Source: an uncultured Spirochaetota bacterium (GTDB lineage Bacteria; Spirochaetota; B62-G9; DRHN01). From it: a stretch of 64,000 nt of DNA. The notes under the pieces are model-generated. The model made no database searches. It was not told the origin of the DNA and saw nothing but the letters and a program-made list of their open reading frames with translations. The first letter of the stretch is position 1, and each line of letters opens with the position of its first letter. The stretch spans positions 256,715 through 320,714 of the forward strand of contig CAZFTJ010000001.1 of assembly GCA_964521865.1 (NCBI GenBank). The letters are read 5' to 3'. The position numbers and the translations under genes are program-made. This document shows, one piece after another, positions 11,975 to 29,075 of this stretch.

Positions 11975-12554
11975 ATATTATTATTAACTCGTGGTATTTA
12001 AAGTACTTACCTATCGATTTAAGGTTTATGGGGAAATATTGTTTTTTTTGTAAGGAATAATTGTAAATATTTTTCAATCGATTCTTTATAAAAAAATCAT
12101 AATTAATAAAAATCCTGTGCGTTTTATCATGCTGAAATCCTTTTTCTCCCGGCACAATTATAATAATTCTTTGTAAATCTAAGTGATTACAGGACTGAAA
12201 CAGATTATTTAAAGTTTTAACCGGGTCATTTAAGTGTTCTAAGACATGACTCATAATTAATGTACTGTATTCGCCAGGTTTTAATTGTTTGAGCTCATAA
12301 TTATCTAATTCAGGGTTGTAATATTCTACATTTAATCCCATTTTTTTACAGTATCTAACTGTTGCTTCATTTACCTCATAACCAATTGATCCATCTGGTA
12401 ATAATGAAAGTAATTCTCCAATACCACAGCCAAAATCAATAGTTTTTCCGATTATATATTTTAGTATATTTTTTAAATAGATTTTCCGTATTTTCTTTCG
12501 AATAATACTCCTTTTTAATTGGTAGTCAGTATACTTCTGATCATATTTTAACAT
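11958..12554 (-). CDS. Class I SAM-dependent methyltransferase
   Basis: Motif I IDFGCGIGELLSLL, motif post-I GYEVNEAT and motif II/III LIMSHVLEHL. Confidence 0.75.
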   Translation of the reverse strand: MLKYDQKYTDYQLKRSIIRKKIRKIYLKNILKYIIGKTIDFGCGIGELLSLLPDGSIGYEVNEATVRYCKKMGLNVEYYNPELDNYELKQLKPGEYSTLIMSHVLEHLNDPVKTLNNLFQSCNHLDLQRIIIIVPGEKGFQHDKTHRIFINYDFFIKNRLKNIYNYSLQKKQYFPINLKSIGKYFKYHELIIIYDKKN

Positions 12555-12569
12555 TTTGATTGGAGTTAT

Positions 12570-12947
12570 TTATTTTTTACGACCATACTCTTTTATTTTT
12601 TTTAATTCATATTTTAATATTCCAATTTCTTGAACAAGGTTTTTAACATTTTCGGTAAGTTTTGAAATAACAATAGAATAGTGTATAAGTATTGAGAGAA
12701 TTGCAGTAAAGAGAAGTATAAAAGCAGCAGCGGGTGGATAACTTACCCCTAGCAATTTTGCGATTAAATCAATACCTCTTCTCCAAAAAGAAAAAAGAAT
12801 AAACAATCCACTGAAAAATAACCATAGGAGTGAATACTCTTCCTTCAACTTTTTTTTTCTTATTAATTCGACAATGAAAATAGTAATTATTACACTTCCA
12901 AAAAGTGCAAAATACTGAATTTTATTTGTGGAGTAACTTTTAAACAT
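12570..12947 (-). CDS. Small membrane protein, DUF2304-like (frequently partnered with GtrB/ArnC-type synthases)
   Basis: 125 aa with three TM helices plus a charged coiled C-terminus (LVQEIGILKYELKKIKEYGRKK). Its start overlaps the stop of the GtrB-like gene. Confidence 0.45.
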   Translation of the reverse strand: MFKSYSTNKIQYFALFGSVIITIFIVELIRKKKLKEEYSLLWLFFSGLFILFSFWRRGIDLIAKLLGVSYPPAAAFILLFTAILSILIHYSIVISKLTENVKNLVQEIGILKYELKKIKEYGRKK

Positions 12948-13671
12948 ATTCTGTAGTCCTTGTATGTTTTTTATTTTTCGGATAAGTGTATGTTATTAAT
13001 ATAGCTAAAATTACTTTAATCATATAATATAATGAATTAAATCCTTTTATAGAAGATTTTCCATTTATTCTTTTTTTCATTTCAATTGATACTTCTTTCA
13101 TTTTAAAATTGTTTTTATCCAATAAAATGATAGCTTCAGGTTCAGGATAATCTGTTGGGTAATAATTAGCAAAAAATTGAATTGCTTTCTTGTTATAAGC
13201 TCTAAAGCCAGAAGTGTTGTCTGAGATACTTTGCTTTATTAGGATTGAATTGATTAATGAAAAAATTTTAATACCTATTTTTCTTAAGAATGATGACGTA
13301 TATCCCTTTTTATTTCCACAAAATCTTGAACCAATAACAACGTCGGCCTTATTTTTAAAAATAGGTTCAATAATTTTAGATACTTCAGACGCATTGTGCT
13401 GGCCGTCACCGTCGAATTGGAAGGCGTAGTCATAATCTTTTAACACCGCATATTTAAAGCCTGTTTGAACGGCACCACCTATTCCAAGATTACATGGTAA
13501 ATTTATAACTTCAGCCTTCTCGGTACCTGCGGCAATGCTTCCGGTATCATCCTCTGAACCGTCATTTACGACAAGTATATCTATATTTGGATACTCAGCT
13601 TTTAAGGAATTTATTACATTGAGTATATTTGACTGCTCGTTATATGCTGGAATAATGGCAAGTATTTTCAT
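12940..13671 (-). CDS. Polyprenol-monophosphate sugar synthase (GtrB/ArnC/DPM1-like GT2)
   Basis: MKILAIIPAYNEQSNI…ILVVNDGSEDDT…DGDGQH (DXD-containing DPM1 family). It has no C-terminal TM extension. Confidence 0.8.
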   Translation of the reverse strand: MKILAIIPAYNEQSNILNVINSLKAEYPNIDILVVNDGSEDDTGSIAAGTEKAEVINLPCNLGIGGAVQTGFKYAVLKDYDYAFQFDGDGQHNASEVSKIIEPIFKNKADVVIGSRFCGNKKGYTSSFLRKIGIKIFSLINSILIKQSISDNTSGFRAYNKKAIQFFANYYPTDYPEPEAIILLDKNNFKMKEVSIEMKKRINGKSSIKGFNSLYYMIKVILAILITYTYPKNKKHTRTTEYV

Positions 13672-13692
13672 GTTATTTAATAATCGAACGAT

Positions 13693-14631
13693 ATGTCGAA
13701 AAATACAATAAATATTCTTATGGCAACGTTTAATGGAGAAAAATATATTGAAGAACAGGTTGAGTCAATAGTAAACCAGAGCTTCAAAAATTGGAAGCTC
13801 TTTATACGTGATGACGGATCGACGGATAATACAGTAGGAATTATCAAAAAGATTGCTTGTGTAAATCCTGGAAAAATATTTTTTGTGGATAGCTCAAAGA
13901 AGTCTCTCGGTGCAAAGGGTAATTTTGCCCAATTGCTTGAATCGACCGATGCCGAATACTTTATGTTCTGTGATCAGGATGACGTCTGGCTTAAGGATAA
14001 AATTGGATTGACATATAACAGGATGATTGAGATTGAAGAGAAAATCGGACATGAAAAACCGATCCTTATTCACACGGATTTGAAAGTTGCAGATGAGAAT
14101 CTTGCTGTTTACGCACCTTCGTTTTCTCAGTATCAAAACTTGAAACCTTTAAAAGTAAAGTCGATCAACAGGCTCCTTGTGCAGAATGTTATCACCGGTT
14201 GTACGGTAATGATCAATAACGCCTTGAAAAAAAAGGGGCTTCCGATTCCGAGAAAGGCAATAATGCATGACTGGTGGCTCGGGCTTGTCGCATCCGCTTT
14301 TGGTATTGTAGATTATATCGATGCACCCACGGTGCTTTACAGGCAGCATGGTATCAATGCAATTGGGGCAAAAAAGTGGGATTTTCGTTATATCGTATAT
14401 AGTGCACAAAGCTTAAAGGAGAAGGCAGCATCGATAAAAATGACAATCGATCAGGCGAAGAGTTTCATCGATAATTACGGTAAAACACTTGACGTTAAAT
14501 CTTATGAAATAGCAAATGTATATTCCCATCTTGATGAATATTCTTTTTTTAAAAAAAGGTTTAAGATTATTCGGTACAATCTGTATAAAATCGGGTTTCT
14601 GAGGAACATCGGGATGTTTATCAGGATGTAA
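13693..14631 (+). CDS. Glycosyltransferase family 2 (WbbL/rhamnosyltransferase-like)
   Basis: ILMATFNGEKYIEEQVESIVNQSFKNWKLFIRDDGSTDNT and a CDQDD DXD motif. Confidence 0.75.
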   Translation: MSKNTINILMATFNGEKYIEEQVESIVNQSFKNWKLFIRDDGSTDNTVGIIKKIACVNPGKIFFVDSSKKSLGAKGNFAQLLESTDAEYFMFCDQDDVWLKDKIGLTYNRMIEIEEKIGHEKPILIHTDLKVADENLAVYAPSFSQYQNLKPLKVKSINRLLVQNVITGCTVMINNALKKKGLPIPRKAIMHDWWLGLVASAFGIVDYIDAPTVLYRQHGINAIGAKKWDFRYIVYSAQSLKEKAASIKMTIDQAKSFIDNYGKTLDVKSYEIANVYSHLDEYSFFKKRFKIIRYNLYKIGFLRNIGMFIRM

Positions 14632-14661
14632 ACTGCACCGTCATGCCTGGACAATACGTTT

Positions 14662-15486
14662 ATGTACTACATTACAGCTTCCATTGTTGTTTACAACAAC
14701 AATCGAGATGACCTCAGTAAATTATTATCATGTCTTTTTAAAATAAGGCTGCTTGGCAGGATATTCGTAATAGACAACTCAATCTCAGGCCGGTTTTCAT
14801 CTCAATGTAACGGTGAAAGAGTAGAATATATCGGAAATCCCGTTAATCCAGGATACGGTGCGGCCCATAATCGAGCGATTGAAAAATCTATCGGTACTTC
14901 CAAATATCACATCGTAATGAATCCTGATATTTATTTCAATGATGGTTCCGTTGAAAAACTCTTTTCATTCATGGAAAAAAACAACGATGTGGGGCTTGTA
15001 ATGCCCAGGATTCTCAATCCGGACGGATCTACCCAGTATCTCTGCAAGTTGCTTCCCGCACCTTCCGACCTTTTATTCAGGCGGTTTTTACCGTTTAAAA
15101 AATTAACTGAGAGGCGAAATGGAATATATGAACTGCGATTTACGGGGTATAATAAGGTGATGGAAGTGCCGTACCTCTCCGGATGTTTCATGTTTTTACG
15201 GACCGAAGCCCTTAAAAAAGCAGGGATGTTTGACGAGAGGTTTTTTATGTACCTTGAGGATACCGATCTGTCGCGGCGCATACACGCGCACTATAAAACC
15301 GTGTATCATCCGGATGCCGAGATATATCACAGGTATGAAAAAGGGTCGTATAAAAGTACGAAACTTCTATGCCGCCACATGGTTTCTGCATTTAAATATT
15401 TCAACAAATGGGGCTGGTTTTTCGACAGGGAGAGAAAGAAAATAAATGTCGATACTCTTAAGAAATTGCGGAATATAAACGATTGA
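14662..15486 (+). CDS. Glycosyltransferase family 2
   Basis: ITASIVVYNNN…GYGAAHN…LEDTDLSRR pattern of the GT2 family. It is the last gene of the very AT-rich block. Confidence 0.7.
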   Translation: MYYITASIVVYNNNRDDLSKLLSCLFKIRLLGRIFVIDNSISGRFSSQCNGERVEYIGNPVNPGYGAAHNRAIEKSIGTSKYHIVMNPDIYFNDGSVEKLFSFMEKNNDVGLVMPRILNPDGSTQYLCKLLPAPSDLLFRRFLPFKKLTERRNGIYELRFTGYNKVMEVPYLSGCFMFLRTEALKKAGMFDERFFMYLEDTDLSRRIHAHYKTVYHPDAEIYHRYEKGSYKSTKLLCRHMVSAFKYFNKWGWFFDRERKKINVDTLKKLRNIND

Positions 15487-15514
15487 GAAATCTTGAATAG
15501 GCAGGAAACAAGGG

Positions 15515-16801
15515 ATGAAGAAACGGCTGGTATTTTATCTTTTTTACGGAGTAGTCATTTTTTTCATCCTCTATATCTGTTTTCTTCTTTATTTCATGGA
15601 TGTACAGGAAGCAACGCTGTTTTTTTTAGAGAGGATCGGGAATGTCATCCTGATTATCATAGTGGCGCTTTTTCTCTCAAACCTCTTCGATCTTATCTCA
15701 TTTAAAAGGGAGATCAAGAAAGAATCGAATCTGTTGAATGAAGTGTTTTCGGTTGCCGGAAAAACCTTGATTATCATTCTCATTACGTCATTTGTGGAAT
15801 TTTTTATTTTTTACAGAACGAAACTCGGAAGGGTGATTTATGTAAATCTCTTTGTCCTCCTCTCCCTTTTTCTTGTAACGGAACATGTTGTCGTTAATTA
15901 TCTCATTCGAAAAAGAAAGCTGAAGATACTGTGGCTGAGCACTATACCCTGCATGCAGGTTGAAACTGATTATTCGCTTGATATAAGCCGCAACAATATA
16001 GAAAAAAATTTTGTCAACAATGACCAGGAATACGATCTTGCAATCTATGATTATCCGCCGAAAGATCATGTCAATCTAAACGACCTTGTGCATACGATTA
16101 TTTCGATAAAAAACCCGATCGATCTCATAACCTACGTCGAGGAACGCACAGAAAAGATCCCGCTGAAGTATGTCGATGAGCTGTGGCTGTTAAAGAATAT
16201 ACGGACGTATGAATCCGTCTACGATAAGCTGCGACGATTTATAAATTTTTTCAGCTGTATTGTATTGCTGATTATTCTTTTTCTTCCATCTTTTTTCTTT
16301 GCACTCGTTCATACGGTAATATCGAAGGGTCCTGTATTTTTTGTTCAGGAGCGTGTCGGGTACAAAGGGAGAAAATTCAACCTGATCAAGTTCAGAACGA
16401 TGATCGATCGGGCAGAAGCGGACGGCCCTCGTTTTACTGAAGAAAACGATCCGAGGGTCACCGGATTCGGAAAAATCATGCGCAGGTTCCGAATTGATGA
16501 GGTTCCGCAGCTGCTGAATGTGCTCAGGGGTGATATGAATTTGATCGGCCCCCGGCCCGAGAGGGAGGAGTTTATCGAACACCTCGAAAAAGAGATCTCT
16601 TTTTATAAACTTCGATTGGAGATCAGGCCCGGCCTGACCGGCTGGGCTCAGGTAAACTTCGCCTATGCCGGCTACAATACGAACGATCACCTGAGAAAGC
16701 TCGAATACGATTTATACTATATCAAAAACAGGAGCCTCCCATTGGATCTCATCATCCTTCTGCGGACTATTAAAACAATGCTGACCCGAAAGGGCACGTA
16801 A
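15515..16801 (+). CDS. Undecaprenyl-phosphate sugar phosphotransferase (WbaP/CpsE/WcaJ-type PGT, bacterial sugar transferase domain)
   Basis: The C-terminal catalytic domain RVGYKGRKFNLIKFRTM…DPRVTGFGKIMRRFRIDEVPQLLNVLRGDMNLIGPRPE is highly characteristic. The N-terminus has TM helices. GC content rises at this gene. Confidence 0.9.
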   Translation: MKKRLVFYLFYGVVIFFILYICFLLYFMDVQEATLFFLERIGNVILIIIVALFLSNLFDLISFKREIKKESNLLNEVFSVAGKTLIIILITSFVEFFIFYRTKLGRVIYVNLFVLLSLFLVTEHVVVNYLIRKRKLKILWLSTIPCMQVETDYSLDISRNNIEKNFVNNDQEYDLAIYDYPPKDHVNLNDLVHTIISIKNPIDLITYVEERTEKIPLKYVDELWLLKNIRTYESVYDKLRRFINFFSCIVLLIILFLPSFFFALVHTVISKGPVFFVQERVGYKGRKFNLIKFRTMIDRAEADGPRFTEENDPRVTGFGKIMRRFRIDEVPQLLNVLRGDMNLIGPRPEREEFIEHLEKEISFYKLRLEIRPGLTGWAQVNFAYAGYNTNDHLRKLEYDLYYIKNRSLPLDLIILLRTIKTMLTRKGT

Positions 16802-19121: not shown

Positions 19122-19187
19122 AAAGACGGGAATAATATCTTTGATTATTGGTGATTGAAGATGTATAGTGTGTGTAGGTAGTCGGAC

Positions 19188-19901
19188 TTGACATGGAGGT
19201 TTGATGAGGTGGCTACAAAAGTAGAAGAAAGAATTGGTTCTCTTGAAAGTATAATGAAGGACCTTGCCTATGCTCATTTGAGAACAGAGGGGAGTCTGAG
19301 AGAGCTGAGTGAGGAGATGAAGGCCTTCAAGGAGGAGATGAAGGCTTTCAAGGATGAGATGAAGGCCTTCAAGGGTGAGATGAAGGCCTTCAAGGATGAG
19401 ATGGGATCTTTCAAGGATGAGATGGGTGATTTCAAGGATGAGATGAAAAATGAAGTGAAAAGAATGAACAAGCAGTGGGGAGACCTTGCCAACAGGCTGG
19501 GAACCGTTGCAGAGGATATTGTTGCTCCCAATATTCCAAGGATAGCAAAGGATTATTTTAACTGTGAAATACTTGAGGATTTTTCAATAAGAAGAAGGGT
19601 GGTAAATAAAAAAGATACCGCAAAAGTAAGGGAGTTTGATGTACTCGTTAAATGTAAAAATATTGTAATTATCAATGAAACGAAATCTACTCCAAGGATT
19701 GAGTATATAGATGGATTTATCAATGTGCTCAACGAATTATTTGATTATTTTCCTGAATATAAAGGCTTGAAGGTGATCCCCATTTTTTCTTCGTTTTCCA
19801 TTCCCGACGACCTGTTAAACTATCTGACAAACAATAAGATCTACGCAATGGCTATGAAGGATGATACAATGGATTTGCTTAATCCGGAGTTGGTACTATA
19901 G
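19188..19901 (+). CDS. Coiled-coil protein with internal heptad tandem repeat and putative PD-(D/E)xK nuclease-like C-terminal domain
   Basis: Contains 6.5 copies of (E/D)EMKAFK encoded by a 21-bp tandem DNA repeat. The C-terminus has D…E-x-K spacing (EFDVLV…IINETKS). The likely true start is the GTG at 19209, 9 nt after GGAGG. Confidence 0.45.
   Translation: MTWRFDEVATKVEERIGSLESIMKDLAYAHLRTEGSLRELSEEMKAFKEEMKAFKDEMKAFKGEMKAFKDEMGSFKDEMGDFKDEMKNEVKRMNKQWGDLANRLGTVAEDIVAPNIPRIAKDYFNCEILEDFSIRRRVVNKKDTAKVREFDVLVKCKNIVIINETKSTPRIEYIDGFINVLNELFDYFPEYKGLKVIPIFSSFSIPDDLLNYLTNNKIYAMAMKDDTMDLLNPELVL
19312..19450 (+). repeat. 21-bp in-frame tandem repeat (~6.5 copies, consensus GAKGAGATGAAGGCCTTCAAG)
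   Basis: Read directly in the sequence: gaggagatgaaggccttcaag, then gaggagatgaaggctttcaag, gatgagatgaaggccttcaag, ggtgagatgaaggccttcaag, gatgagatgggatctttcaag and gatgagatgggtgatttcaag. Confidence 0.9.
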
Positions 19902-20134: not shown

Positions 20135-20431
20135 TTATTTTTGGTATTCTGTAAACGAATCGAAACCTTTTAGATAATCTTCATAGGATATATTTGATTC
20201 AATACCCTGTTCCGATAAGAGTTCGATGGCCTCGATAATTGATACTTCGAGTTTTTTAGCCAGAATTCCCAGAGATAGTTTTCCTTCTTTGTAACGTTTG
20301 ATCATAAGATAGGTCCAGCCGTAATCGATTAGCTCACGTGTTACTGCGGACCTATCCTTGTTCTCAACTTCTGAAAGCTCATCGATCCTTTTCGATTCTT
20401 TTTCCTTTAATCTCAAACTGATAACACCCAT
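20135..20431 (-). CDS. UPF0175-family putative antitoxin
   Basis: 98 aa, and the C-terminal half resembles UPF0175 proteins that pair with DUF3368 PIN toxins. Only 3 nt separate it from the upstream PIN gene. Confidence 0.5.
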   Translation of the reverse strand: MGVISLRLKEKESKRIDELSEVENKDRSAVTRELIDYGWTYLMIKRYKEGKLSLGILAKKLEVSIIEAIELLSEQGIESNISYEDYLKGFDSFTEYQK

Positions 20432-20433
20432 GT

Positions 20434-20943
20434 TTATTCTCCTTTTAAACGCTTTTCGATGTCGCTGATTATTCTTTTATTGTATCTGCCATATTTGGAT
20501 AAAGCATCTAATTTTTCTATGGCAACCGGCAACGTAAGTTTTTTTAGCGATGTAAGATATAGCAGTAAATGAATGGCTGTTGTGAACTTCAGTCCAATTA
20601 CTTTGCTTGCTTTTATTGCCCGTCCGTCATCAATAGCGAGTGGGAGGTTAAGATTTTTAGCAAGCCAGACAGCTTCAGCCTCACCTTTACCGATTCTAAA
20701 ATCGCTTTGAAGTTTCTCAACGGTTTTATCCACTTTGATTTCTCGAACCTCAATTTTATTCTCTTTAATAAGACGTGCTATCAGGAGGGCATCAACGCTA
20801 TTTTTAATCAGGCATTCTTTTTTGACGCCTTCCGGAATAATTACCGTTATAGTTTTTGTGATATCGATTAATATGTCTACTTTGGCCAGAAGAATCAATG
20901 TTGAAGAATCGAAGACAAATTTCATGTTTACAAAATAATACAA
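20434..20943 (-). CDS. PIN-domain protein (DUF3368-like putative toxin)
   Basis: The N-terminal FVFDSSTLILLAKVDILIDI has the PIN acidic first strand; later motifs AIDDGRAIKASKVIGLKFT are consistent with a PIN/DUF3368 fold. The likely start is Met7 (MKFVFDSS). Confidence 0.55.
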   Translation of the reverse strand: MYYFVNMKFVFDSSTLILLAKVDILIDITKTITVIIPEGVKKECLIKNSVDALLIARLIKENKIEVREIKVDKTVEKLQSDFRIGKGEAEAVWLAKNLNLPLAIDDGRAIKASKVIGLKFTTAIHLLLYLTSLKKLTLPVAIEKLDALSKYGRYNKRIISDIEKRLKGE

Positions 20944-21029: not shown

Positions 21030-21476
21030 TTAACGTTCATACAGAACGATCCCCGTTTCACGGGCTTTTTGTGCAATGGGATTGTGCAGCTCTTTTTCTG
21101 TGTAGGGGAAAACTTCCAGGGGAAAGTCCAGTGAAAACCTCTCAACCCACCCGGCTGTTCTGTCTATAAATGGCCTGTCGTCCTTTTCGAGAATTATCAG
21201 TATATCAGCATCACTGCCCGGGACGCCTCTTTTCTCCGCCAGTGATCCGAACAGAATGATCTTTTGTACATTCAAGTCCTTTTTACCGATTTTTATAGCA
21301 GCACTGCGGATCTTTTTTATCAACCGATTCTGTTCAAGCCAGAAGACTCTCACAGAATTCAATGATTCTTCTCGCACAAACGACCGCATCTTCAGCATCA
21401 CTCCTTGTGAAATATTCGAAGGGGCTTCCAGTTTCGAATCCATTTGGGTATCGGGTCGGAATGTAGTATTTATCAA
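21030..21476 (-). CDS. MNT-type nucleotidyltransferase (antitoxin-like partner of HEPN)
   Basis: GS-x9-13-DxD motif ILFGSLAEKRGVPGSDADILIIL. The probable start is an internal Met (~21389-21398), which still overlaps the HEPN gene's 3' end. Confidence 0.7.
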   Translation of the reverse strand: MINTTFRPDTQMDSKLEAPSNISQGVMLKMRSFVREESLNSVRVFWLEQNRLIKKIRSAAIKIGKKDLNVQKIILFGSLAEKRGVPGSDADILIILEKDDRPFIDRTAGWVERFSLDFPLEVFPYTEKELHNPIAQKARETGIVLYER

Positions 21477-21723
21477 GATGTTTCACACATTGCATAAGTG
21501 AATCGCCCACTCGTTCAGTTTTTGAGAGAACTTTCATAAGTTCGAATAAAGAATGGCCCCATGCTGCGGCGTTTCGCTTTTGAAACACCGACTTAATTGC
21601 CTTTTCCGCTGCCTGCTGTGAAATAAAACATGACCATTCGTAGCATTCATCCTTCATGACAGCCTGGGCAGCCTTAATATCTTTATTCGCTTGATTCATC
21701 CAGTCTTTACTTCTCTCCGGCAT
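21334..21723 (-). CDS. HEPN-domain protein
   Basis: 129 aa all-alpha protein (KDIKAAQAVMKDECYEWSCFISQQAAEKAIKSVF…GHSL…), the HEPN fold normally paired with MNT. It overlaps the MNT gene. Confidence 0.65.
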   Translation of the reverse strand: MPERSKDWMNQANKDIKAAQAVMKDECYEWSCFISQQAAEKAIKSVFQKRNAAAWGHSLFELMKVLSKTERVGDSLMQCVKHLDKYYIPTRYPNGFETGSPFEYFTRSDAEDAVVCARRIIEFCESLLA

Positions 21724-28959: not shown

Positions 28960-29075
28960 AGATCCCGGGAATGAAGCTCCCATGAATAGAGGTCCTGGGA
29001 ATGAAGCTTCCGGGAATGGGGCTCTCTGGAATGAAGCTCCTCGGAATGAGGCTCCCGGCCAGTGGCAATCGACCT
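28960..29075. repeat. Imperfect short direct repeats GGAATGARGCTCC (5 copies) in an intergenic region
   Basis: cccgggaatgaagctcc, cctgggaatgaagcttcc, gggaatggggctctc, ggaatgaagctcctc and ggaatgaggctcccgg, located between the CBM48-like gene start and the ssb 3' end. Confidence 0.6.

Follow-up and report, generated by a model that had tools for sequence, protein, structure and literature searches.

Coiled-coil stalks classified as DUF3782 belong to prokaryotic endonucleases of one PD-(D/E)XK family (Hartmann et al. 2016, eLife, PMC4786415); crenarchaeal-type stalks are trimeric, and the bacterial members are plain coiled coils without the nonad/beta-layer periodicity seen in their crenarchaeal counterparts (PMC4786415). 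The gene analysed here, which we call the stalked nuclease gene, lies in a stretch of 64,000 nucleotides from a contig of an uncultured Spirochaetota bacterium (the window, meaning this whole stretch), and its product shares with DUF3782 proteins an N-terminal repetitive coiled-coil stalk followed by a C-terminal PD-(D/E)xK domain, but the stalk is made of FK(D/E)EM heptads where theirs has MATKDD-type nonads with beta-layers. A reading made earlier from the letters alone (the sequence-only reading) had described a perfect repeat of 21 base pairs (bp) that encodes the stalk, and had proposed that it is a contingency locus at the head of a toxin-antitoxin islet. We consider it likely that the gene encodes a cytoplasmic, stand-alone, coiled-coil-stalked PD-(D/E)xK endonuclease of the DUF8196 family, in which an in-frame variable repeat sets the length of the stalk.

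The repeat array obtained the highest score of any tandem repeat in the 64-kilobase (kb) window in Tandem Repeats Finder (TRF; 19314-19447, period 21, 6.4 copies, 86% matches, no indels, score 177), which agrees with the period, coordinates, frame and roughly 6.5 copies of the sequence-only reading but not with the word "perfect," as no two units are identical. Its consensus unit, GAGATGAAGGCCTTCAAGGAT, occurs in four head-to-tail copies with at most one mismatch, for which the expectation in 100 dinucleotide-preserving shuffles was 0.00. Units 1-4 are alike at 18-20 of 21 bases; units 5 and 6 agree with each other at 18/21 and with units 1-4 at 15-16/21, and unit 7 is a degenerate remnant. 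Translation from 19311 gives EEMKAFK, EEMKAFK, DEMKAFK, GEMKAFK, DEMGSFK, DEMGDFK and DEMKNEV. Within the array every Lys codon is AAG (10/10), every Glu codon GAG (8/8) and every Phe codon TTC (6/6), whereas the remainder of the gene has AAA:AAG at 10:6, GAA:GAG at 8:8 and TTT:TTC at 8:0 (Fisher p = 4e-8). Because synonymous sites are homogenised inside the array, its units must be related by recent duplication or conversion of DNA, beyond what amino-acid constraint would impose. A recent expansion, which had been proposed from near-identical units, is upheld in so far as the units share recent ancestry at the DNA level; near-identity is confined to units 1-4.

Variation in stalk length, which a comparison of copy number across relatives had been expected to reveal, is evident. 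Among the 120 nearest homologues the number of heptads ranges from 1 to 21, and the C-terminal portion is constant at ~144-150 residues; a tandem repeat is present at the DNA level in all but three of 86 loci, with a period of mostly 21, 42 or 63, and unit identity is 97-100% in L010, L026, L062 and L083. Four orthologous loci with the same synteny (L001-L004: galE, stalked nuclease, MNT/HEPN, HAD, PHP, lgt) share ~93% DNA identity with the window and differ from it by one clean 42-bp (two-unit) indel, the orthologue being the shorter; L005 has six units of a composition different from that in the window, L006 has three, and altogether four distinct array structures occur among the closest relatives of the window. 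Proteins of a second lineage that agree in their N-terminus, and whose heads are at least 98% identical, carry 2, 3, 4, 5 or 7 heptads, and metagenome 3300045871 contains two contigs with 1 and 6 units and identical flanks. Every difference observed between arrays is a multiple of 21 bp and keeps the frame. Counts of near-identical pairs are subject to bias, the database being clustered at 90% identity such that only length variants stay as separate entries. The array is thus a true in-frame variable-number repeat that turns over faster than the head diverges, with slippage as the presumed mechanism of change in unit number.

Adjacent paralogues often differ in stalk length too: at L088 a copy with 1 heptad neighbours one with a non-heptad stalk, and the heptad numbers of the neighbours are 11 and 3 at L092 and 6 and 9 at L093. 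Over the wider group of tandem or nearby paralogues (see table), heads are 95-100% identical and stalks differ, with 1 heptad, at least 6 heptads or a non-heptad sequence, a pattern that suggests gene conversion of heads or swapping of stalk modules. In the distant members P0121, P0127, P0139, P0196 and P0236, 11-residue repeats (such as MKAFEERLEKD and WEKRIAESDER) replace the heptads, and it seems that stalks built of repeats originated on several occasions within the family.

An in-frame coiled-coil repeat whose copy number changes by unequal crossing-over or slippage is also found in HsdS of type IC restriction enzymes (the TAEL repeat of EcoR124I/II), where, in a likeness to the present array, the change alters the geometry of a nuclease complex. 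The HsdS coiled coil spaces two DNA-recognition domains, and its length therefore alters the target sequence. In the stalked nuclease, unlike HsdS, the heads would lie at one end of a probably parallel stalk, whose length would alter only the distance from tip to head.

The stalk was modelled with AlphaFold2 (AF2) as a single helix over residues 3-104 of one chain (residue numbers throughout are those of the 237-residue open reading frame [ORF] that begins at TTG 19188). The regular heptad segment noted by the sequence-only reading is confirmed, and its pattern predicts a coiled coil: position a is Met, d is Phe, e is Lys and g is Glu, and a and d are Met and Phe in all six full units. The same register was found in a logo of 1808 heptads from 362 family proteins (a, Met 68%; b, Lys/Arg/Leu; c, Glu/Asp/Ala; d, Phe; e, Lys 72%; f, Asp 53%; g, Glu 72%), and the family heptads conform to the pattern of parallel coiled coils in having hydrophobic a and d positions and complementary charges at e and g. 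By coiled-coil rules, Glu at g together with Lys at e in one chain favours a parallel homo-oligomer, as antiparallel packing of such chains would set like charges face to face. The stalk may therefore be a parallel homo-oligomer of 2-4 chains, ~15 nm long, with each heptad contributing ~1 nm (rise ~0.148 nm/residue). In the conserved helical segment at its tip, L19 and E20 are almost invariant among 82 homologues. Separately, the trimeric stalks of the DUF3782 type have a beta-layer consensus, [aliphatic]-A-T-K-[polar]-[DE] (PMC4786415), to which (V)ATKVEE at 19206-19226 bears a likeness; an N-terminal beta-layer was kept as a lead only, as five of the six positions fit (the fifth fails) and the motif is not conserved in the family.

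For the head, the AF2 model (input, an alignment of 82 sequences; mean pLDDT [predicted local distance difference test] 85, >90 for residues 111-237 and 90-97 in the head) predicts a helix at 107-124, strands at 131-139, 147-156 and 159-165, a helix at 171-182, a strand at 195-201, a helix at 207-215 and a final hairpin, containing the alpha-beta-beta-beta-alpha-beta core typical of PD-(D/E)xK nucleases. When the model was compared with the PDB using Foldseek, the best match was the small subunit of R.BspD6I (2p14, E = 4e-4), followed by Can2, Card1, VC1899 and Cdn1 (~2e-3, probability 1.00, root-mean-square deviation 3.7-4.6 Å) and, further down, by NucS/EndoMS, Bax1, McrC, the R2 retrotransposon endonuclease and MGME1; almost all of the top-ranked matches are PD-(D/E)xK nucleases. 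In BFVD, the matches included an archaeal-virus protein (1.8e-6, TMt 0.61) as well as phage proteins annotated as PD-(D/E)xK. Like the R.BspD6I small subunit, the head would be a minimal catalytic PD-(D/E)xK module lacking a DNA-recognition domain of its own; however, R.BspD6I needs a large specificity subunit encoded nearby, and the stalked nuclease has no conserved partner gene. The nuclease domains of Can2, Card1 and VC1899 (DUF1887), which are ancillary effectors of type III CRISPR systems and among the best solved matches to the head, align over ~110 residues at 15-21% identity, with their D...ExK motifs in register, but the stalked nuclease has a single N-terminal helix in place of a CARF sensor domain and has no CRISPR context, and where those three join their domains by a ligand-binding dimer it would do so by a coiled coil.

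The conserved residues are of catalytic type. In alignments of 82 homologues (A1) and 80 sequences (A4), W97, T106, E109, D110, P114, E149, D151, K166, P189 and M228 are invariant, with E164 and T165 close behind (at least 90% conserved). The sequence-only reading had based a PD-(D/E)xK-like C-terminus on EFDVLV...IINETKS. This motif occurs in the protein, with D, E and K at columns that the family conserves (D151, E164 and K166), so that on fold, structural matches and motif this assignment was correct. A family profile searched against the PDB found Can2 (8bao) as its best match, placing EfDviav..llnEtKs on EIDCIV..FVECKS at E = 0.085, a value that is supportive only, and a sequence search of the PDB with the head alone gave nothing below E = 0.37. 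We thus regard the C-terminal domain as a predicted PD-(D/E)xK nuclease by fold and motif, and metal-dependent phosphodiester cleavage would be its expected activity.

This protein belongs, as far as can be judged from sequence comparison, to DUF8196 and is remotely related to the DUF3782 stalked endonucleases. PF26618.1 (DUF8196) is a precomputed annotation of record P0001, to which the window protein is 100% identical from M23 onward; the match is weak or faint on orthologues of the window's lineage, unmarked on relatives such as P0269 and present on most homologues, and the UniRef name of the Jettenia orthologue is "DUF8196 domain-containing protein." The link to DUF3782 (PF12644) that had been suggested exists but is weak: the match, over residues 70-128 (the last heptads, the W-G junction and helix alpha-1), reaches 19.8 bits (E = 8.9e-4), below the gathering cut-off of 24.4 bits, which one relative, P0080, passes at 25.2 bits. 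NERD (PF08378) scored 15.3-15.4 bits against a cut-off of 22.1, over the first half of the model only, and we do not assign the protein to it. Among 137 representatives, 13 matched DUF3782 and 5 matched NERD (E<0.01). NCBIfam returned only coiled-coil noise for the stalked nuclease, PHROGs nothing, and PADLOC-DB only weak coiled-coil matches to the stalk regions of ZorA/JetC (best E = 9.6e-4). Searches of the literature for DUF8196 and for the heptad strings found no paper, and a general search for coiled-coil repeats found nothing relevant.

The family is large and scattered. The full-length protein has 1115 homologues (E<=1e-3) and the C-terminal profile 2198; an exhaustive phmmer search gave 913 clusters at 50% identity, in which the head is always C-terminal and follows 13-192 variable residues. 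Species representatives in GTDB contain at least 572 copies, with taxa including Spirochaetota, Nitrospirota, Desulfobacterota, Brocadiaceae, Chromatiaceae, Bacteroidota, Chloroflexota, Bacillota and one archaeal metagenome-assembled genome, and Desulfamplus magnetovallimortis alone has at least four paralogues. No relatives were found among 72,556 plasmids, 50,697 phages and 2.9 million viral contigs (IMG/VR).

With respect to the gene model, the likeliest start is GTG 19209. It is favoured over TTG 19188 because homologues begin with MATKVEER, MTTKVEER or MPVKVEER (pattern M-x-x-K-V-E-E-R), because a GGAGG lies 9 nucleotides upstream and the stretch from GGAGG to GTG is unchanged in L001, L003 and L005, and because the codon directly 3' of TTG 19188 varies in three close relatives (ACA, AAG, CAA), which suggests that it is not under coding constraint. 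The start of P0001 at ATG 19254 was probably mis-called, since it removes the conserved N-terminal segment KVEERIGSLESI of the homologues. A promoter-like site falls within the 87-nucleotide (nt) gap after galE, in a stretch kept in the orthologous loci L001 and L003. The antisense ORF at 19274-19531 (minus strand, 85 amino acids [aa], SSLKAFI repeats) is the mirror image of the array and was rejected as a gene.

Downstream, the stalked nuclease gene is convergent with four genes. Two of these form an overlapping nucleotidyltransferase/HEPN (MNT/HEPN) pair that is kept in all sister-strain loci. The other two, a UPF0175-like/PIN-like pair, have no counterpart in L001-L005, which are otherwise syntenic and in which MNT/HEPN directly adjoins the nuclease gene, and because of this absence from orthologous loci the pair at 20135-20943 looks like a recent toxin-antitoxin insertion. 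The gene therefore does adjoin toxin-antitoxin pairs, as the sequence-only reading had it, but being convergent with them it is not the head of their operon, and a functional tie to the islet would be an overstatement, given that one pair is absent from the orthologues and that ORF clustering and Pfam scans of neighbours found none conserved across about 80 genomes. In a hot-spring lineage, 1-3 tandem copies of the gene stand among PIN, DUF4258/DUF2283, DUF433/DUF5615 and MNT/HepT pairs, and at L092 DUF6364/PIN adjoins one copy. The 135 nearest neighbours in about 70 genomes hit 197 Pfam families, mostly housekeeping (Pfam scan); of the small ORFs within 1.8 kb of the gene at 36 loci, 3/64 match a toxin-antitoxin family, and no link to repair genes was found in the loci examined. 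Among the nearest neighbours (at L024, L027 and others) are AAA-ATPase_like with PDDEXK_9 (4/135) and Uma2 (2/135), other multi-copy solitary nuclease-fold families that share DUF8196 neighbourhoods.

Guanine-plus-cytosine content (G+C) is 0.35-0.39 over 19.2-21.4 kb against 0.48-0.56 in the flanks, and no tRNA that could serve as an integration site is present in the window. G+C is also low (0.26-0.42) at 12000-16000, over an upstream glycosyltransferase/O-antigen-type polysaccharide cluster, and ~0.5-0.56 downstream of 21.6 kb, with the nuclease gene at the boundary of the low-G+C variable region. Elsewhere in the window, a 15-bp/45-bp tandem repeat (6.4/2.1 copies, 67-76% matches) at 28963-29058, covered by short overlapping ORFs only, lies just 3' of a secreted-looking 239-aa ORF.

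Table. Features of the stalked nuclease gene and its surroundings (window positions, except for the paralogue sets, which are given by locus).
Feature	Position	Strand	Basis or remark
Putative promoter-like TTGATT-17-TATAGT	19141..19169	+	consensus scan, 9/12 matches
ORF of the stalked nuclease gene as called mechanically	19188..19901	+	TTG start, 237 aa; ORF list
GGAGG, Shine-Dalgarno-like	19195..19199	+	9 nt 5' of GTG 19209; direct reading
Stalked nuclease gene	19209..19901	+	favoured GTG start, 230 aa
Conserved N-terminal helical segment VEERxxxLExxxxxLAxAxxRTE, stalk tip	19209..19310	+	in AF2 helix 3-104
NCBI-derived record P0001 (identical protein, 215 aa)	start at ATG 19254	+	
In-frame 21-bp array	19311..19457	+	six full units 19311-19436 and a degenerate unit 19437-19457
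C-terminal DUF8196 domain, predicted PD-(D/E)xK nuclease fold	19458..19898	+	AF2, Foldseek, family profile
E109-D110 codons, invariant acidic pair, start of helix alpha-1	19512..19517	+	alignment A4; AF2
D151 codon, "D" of the PD motif, strand beta-2	19638..19640	+	invariant; aligns with catalytic D of Can2
E164-T165-K166 codons, "(D/E)xK," end of strand beta-3	19677..19685	+	aligns with E-C-K of Can2
UPF0175-like gene	20135-20431	-	27.6 bits, cut-off 27.9
PIN-like gene, 169 aa	20434-20943	-	PADLOC PDC-S70; no Pfam hit
Overlapping nucleotidyltransferase (Polbeta/NTP_transf_2) and HEPN pair	21030-21723	-	HEPN E = 4e-31
Paralogue sets	L088 4400-5606; L089 32-1238; L090 2774-5546; L093 2034-3597; L092 1099-5465		

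Under the explanation that we favour, one could envision residues 8 to ~104 forming one long helix with the heptads in its middle, and a parallel homo-oligomer that sets the nuclease heads side by side at one end of the stalk. Each head would be a minimal nuclease domain of ~130 aa without a separate nucleic-acid-recognition domain, in which a divalent metal would be bound by E109/D110, D151 and E164, with K166 as the last element of the active site. Whole heptads, at ~1 nm each, would be gained or lost through replication slippage or unequal recombination, and the length of the stalk would change with both the coiled-coil register and the reading frame intact. Several observations weigh against this explanation. 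Phe at position d is uncommon for dimers and leaves the stoichiometry unfixed, and the coiled coil is read from the heptad pattern, the AF2 model being of one chain. The Foldseek E-values in the PDB are modest (1e-4 to 1e-2) and the TM-scores low, the latter because the 100-residue helix is counted in the normalisation, and sequence links to characterised nucleases are weak (NERD at 15 bits, Can2 at E = 0.085, DUF3782 below its cut-off). Copy number did not vary among the samples found for two strains: in the sister strain of the window at least five metagenome samples share one identical 4-unit allele (a metagenome scan with the right flank of the array added one contig, again with this allele), and in Jettenia caeni 52 contigs encode one and the same protein; turnover of the array may thus be ordinary for a 21-bp repeat. 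Finally, a search of the literature under the family names DUF8196/DUF3782 found nothing functional.

Alternatively, the array could be a contingency locus as proposed in the sequence-only reading, that is, a hypermutable repeat at which selection keeps several stalk lengths and permits high-frequency switching of nuclease properties. Such a view would account for unit numbers that differ where catalytic domains are 98-100% identical, for alleles of 1 and 6 units occurring together in one metagenome, and for the 97-100% unit identity in several lineages and the four array structures among the closest relatives; like the classical contingency loci of Neisseria and Haemophilus, this is an intragenic repeat whose copy number differs between close relatives. 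However, the unit is 21 bp long, imperfect and always in frame, and shifts of frame or promoter spacing that would switch expression, as at those loci, are not seen; because a 21-bp in-frame unit cannot turn the gene on or off, it is not a classical contingency locus. The stability of alleles over five or more samples (the 4-unit allele) and 52 contigs (Jettenia) argues in the same direction, as do the 86% homogeneity of the window array, which implies a lower slippage rate, and the lack of a signal peptide, which removes variation of a surface antigen, the usual driver of such loci. As the set of near-identical pairs is in addition biased by the 90% clustering of the database, we consider a contingency locus improbable. 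A non-catalytic scaffold, with an inactive head that only binds nucleic acid or protein on a coiled-coil stalk, is far less probable still: inactivated PD-(D/E)xK domains usually lose their catalytic residues, whereas here the catalytic-type set E109/D110, D151, E164 and K166 is invariant or nearly so across phyla.

What the enzyme does is a separate matter. It may be a self-contained anti-phage or addiction nuclease carried in toxin-antitoxin/defence islets, with a stalk that inhibits it or senses a trigger; this would add a role to the stand-alone stalked endonuclease that we favour rather than replace it, and although such a part in genome conflict is our leading guess, it is a doubtful one. 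The gene lies in a low-G+C islet beside a UPF0175-like/PIN-like and an MNT/HEPN pair, the copies of the hot-spring lineage stand among toxin-antitoxin pairs and that at L092 beside DUF6364/PIN, the distribution is patchy with at least four paralogues in D. magnetovallimortis, and Can2 and Card1, both CRISPR ancillary nucleases, are among the closest solved folds, as is McrC. On the other hand, PADLOC gave coiled-coil noise only, no conserved partner or immunity gene is found and neighbours in about 70 genomes are mostly housekeeping, toxin-antitoxin families account for only 3/64 of the nearby small ORFs at 36 loci, and the family is absent from the plasmid, phage and viral contig sets searched. 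Conversely, a structure-specific housekeeping nuclease of junction or flap repair or recombination, dimerised by a coiled coil whose repeat number drifts neutrally, would be compatible with structural neighbours such as NucS/EndoMS, Bax1 and MGME1, with the missing immunity partner, which implies an activity intrinsically harmless to the cell's own DNA, and with tolerance of 1-21 heptads, as expected of a stalk that serves oligomerisation only. Nevertheless, the distribution is patchy rather than universal, paralogues are multiple and in tandem, the location is low in G+C and variable, no repair gene is linked to the gene at the loci examined, and the heptad sequence is conserved across phyla beyond the needs of oligomerisation, so this seems to us even less probable than a contingency locus. 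The patchy phyletic spread, the low G+C, the paralogue pairs and the recurrent, though not universal, toxin-antitoxin neighbours lead us to lean towards genome conflict over housekeeping.

A more speculative extension, to which we give as little credence as to a housekeeping role, is that stalk length is itself a selected, fast-evolving trait of a stand-alone conflict nuclease whose conserved N-terminal tip docks on a target or sensor and whose heptad number, as a molecular ruler, sets how far the nuclease heads reach. If so, length alleles generated by slippage and tandem paralogues with different stalks would provide a population with a spectrum of reaches or an escape from inhibitors, and the repeated invention of stalks from 7- and 11-residue repeats would reflect selection for evolvable length.

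The architecture of a stalk with a PD-(D/E)xK head has been known since 2016, and the gene itself is unexceptional within its existing Pfam family. Less ordinary is that an intracellular enzyme should have, family-wide, a variable-number stalk whose units are homogenised at the DNA level within each gene. If length is neutral, this would be a clean case of a structural element that tolerates repeat instability. If it affects activity, the family would offer a natural length series for the tuning of a nuclease by coiled-coil geometry and, for many uncultivated phyla, a candidate conflict system consisting of one gene.

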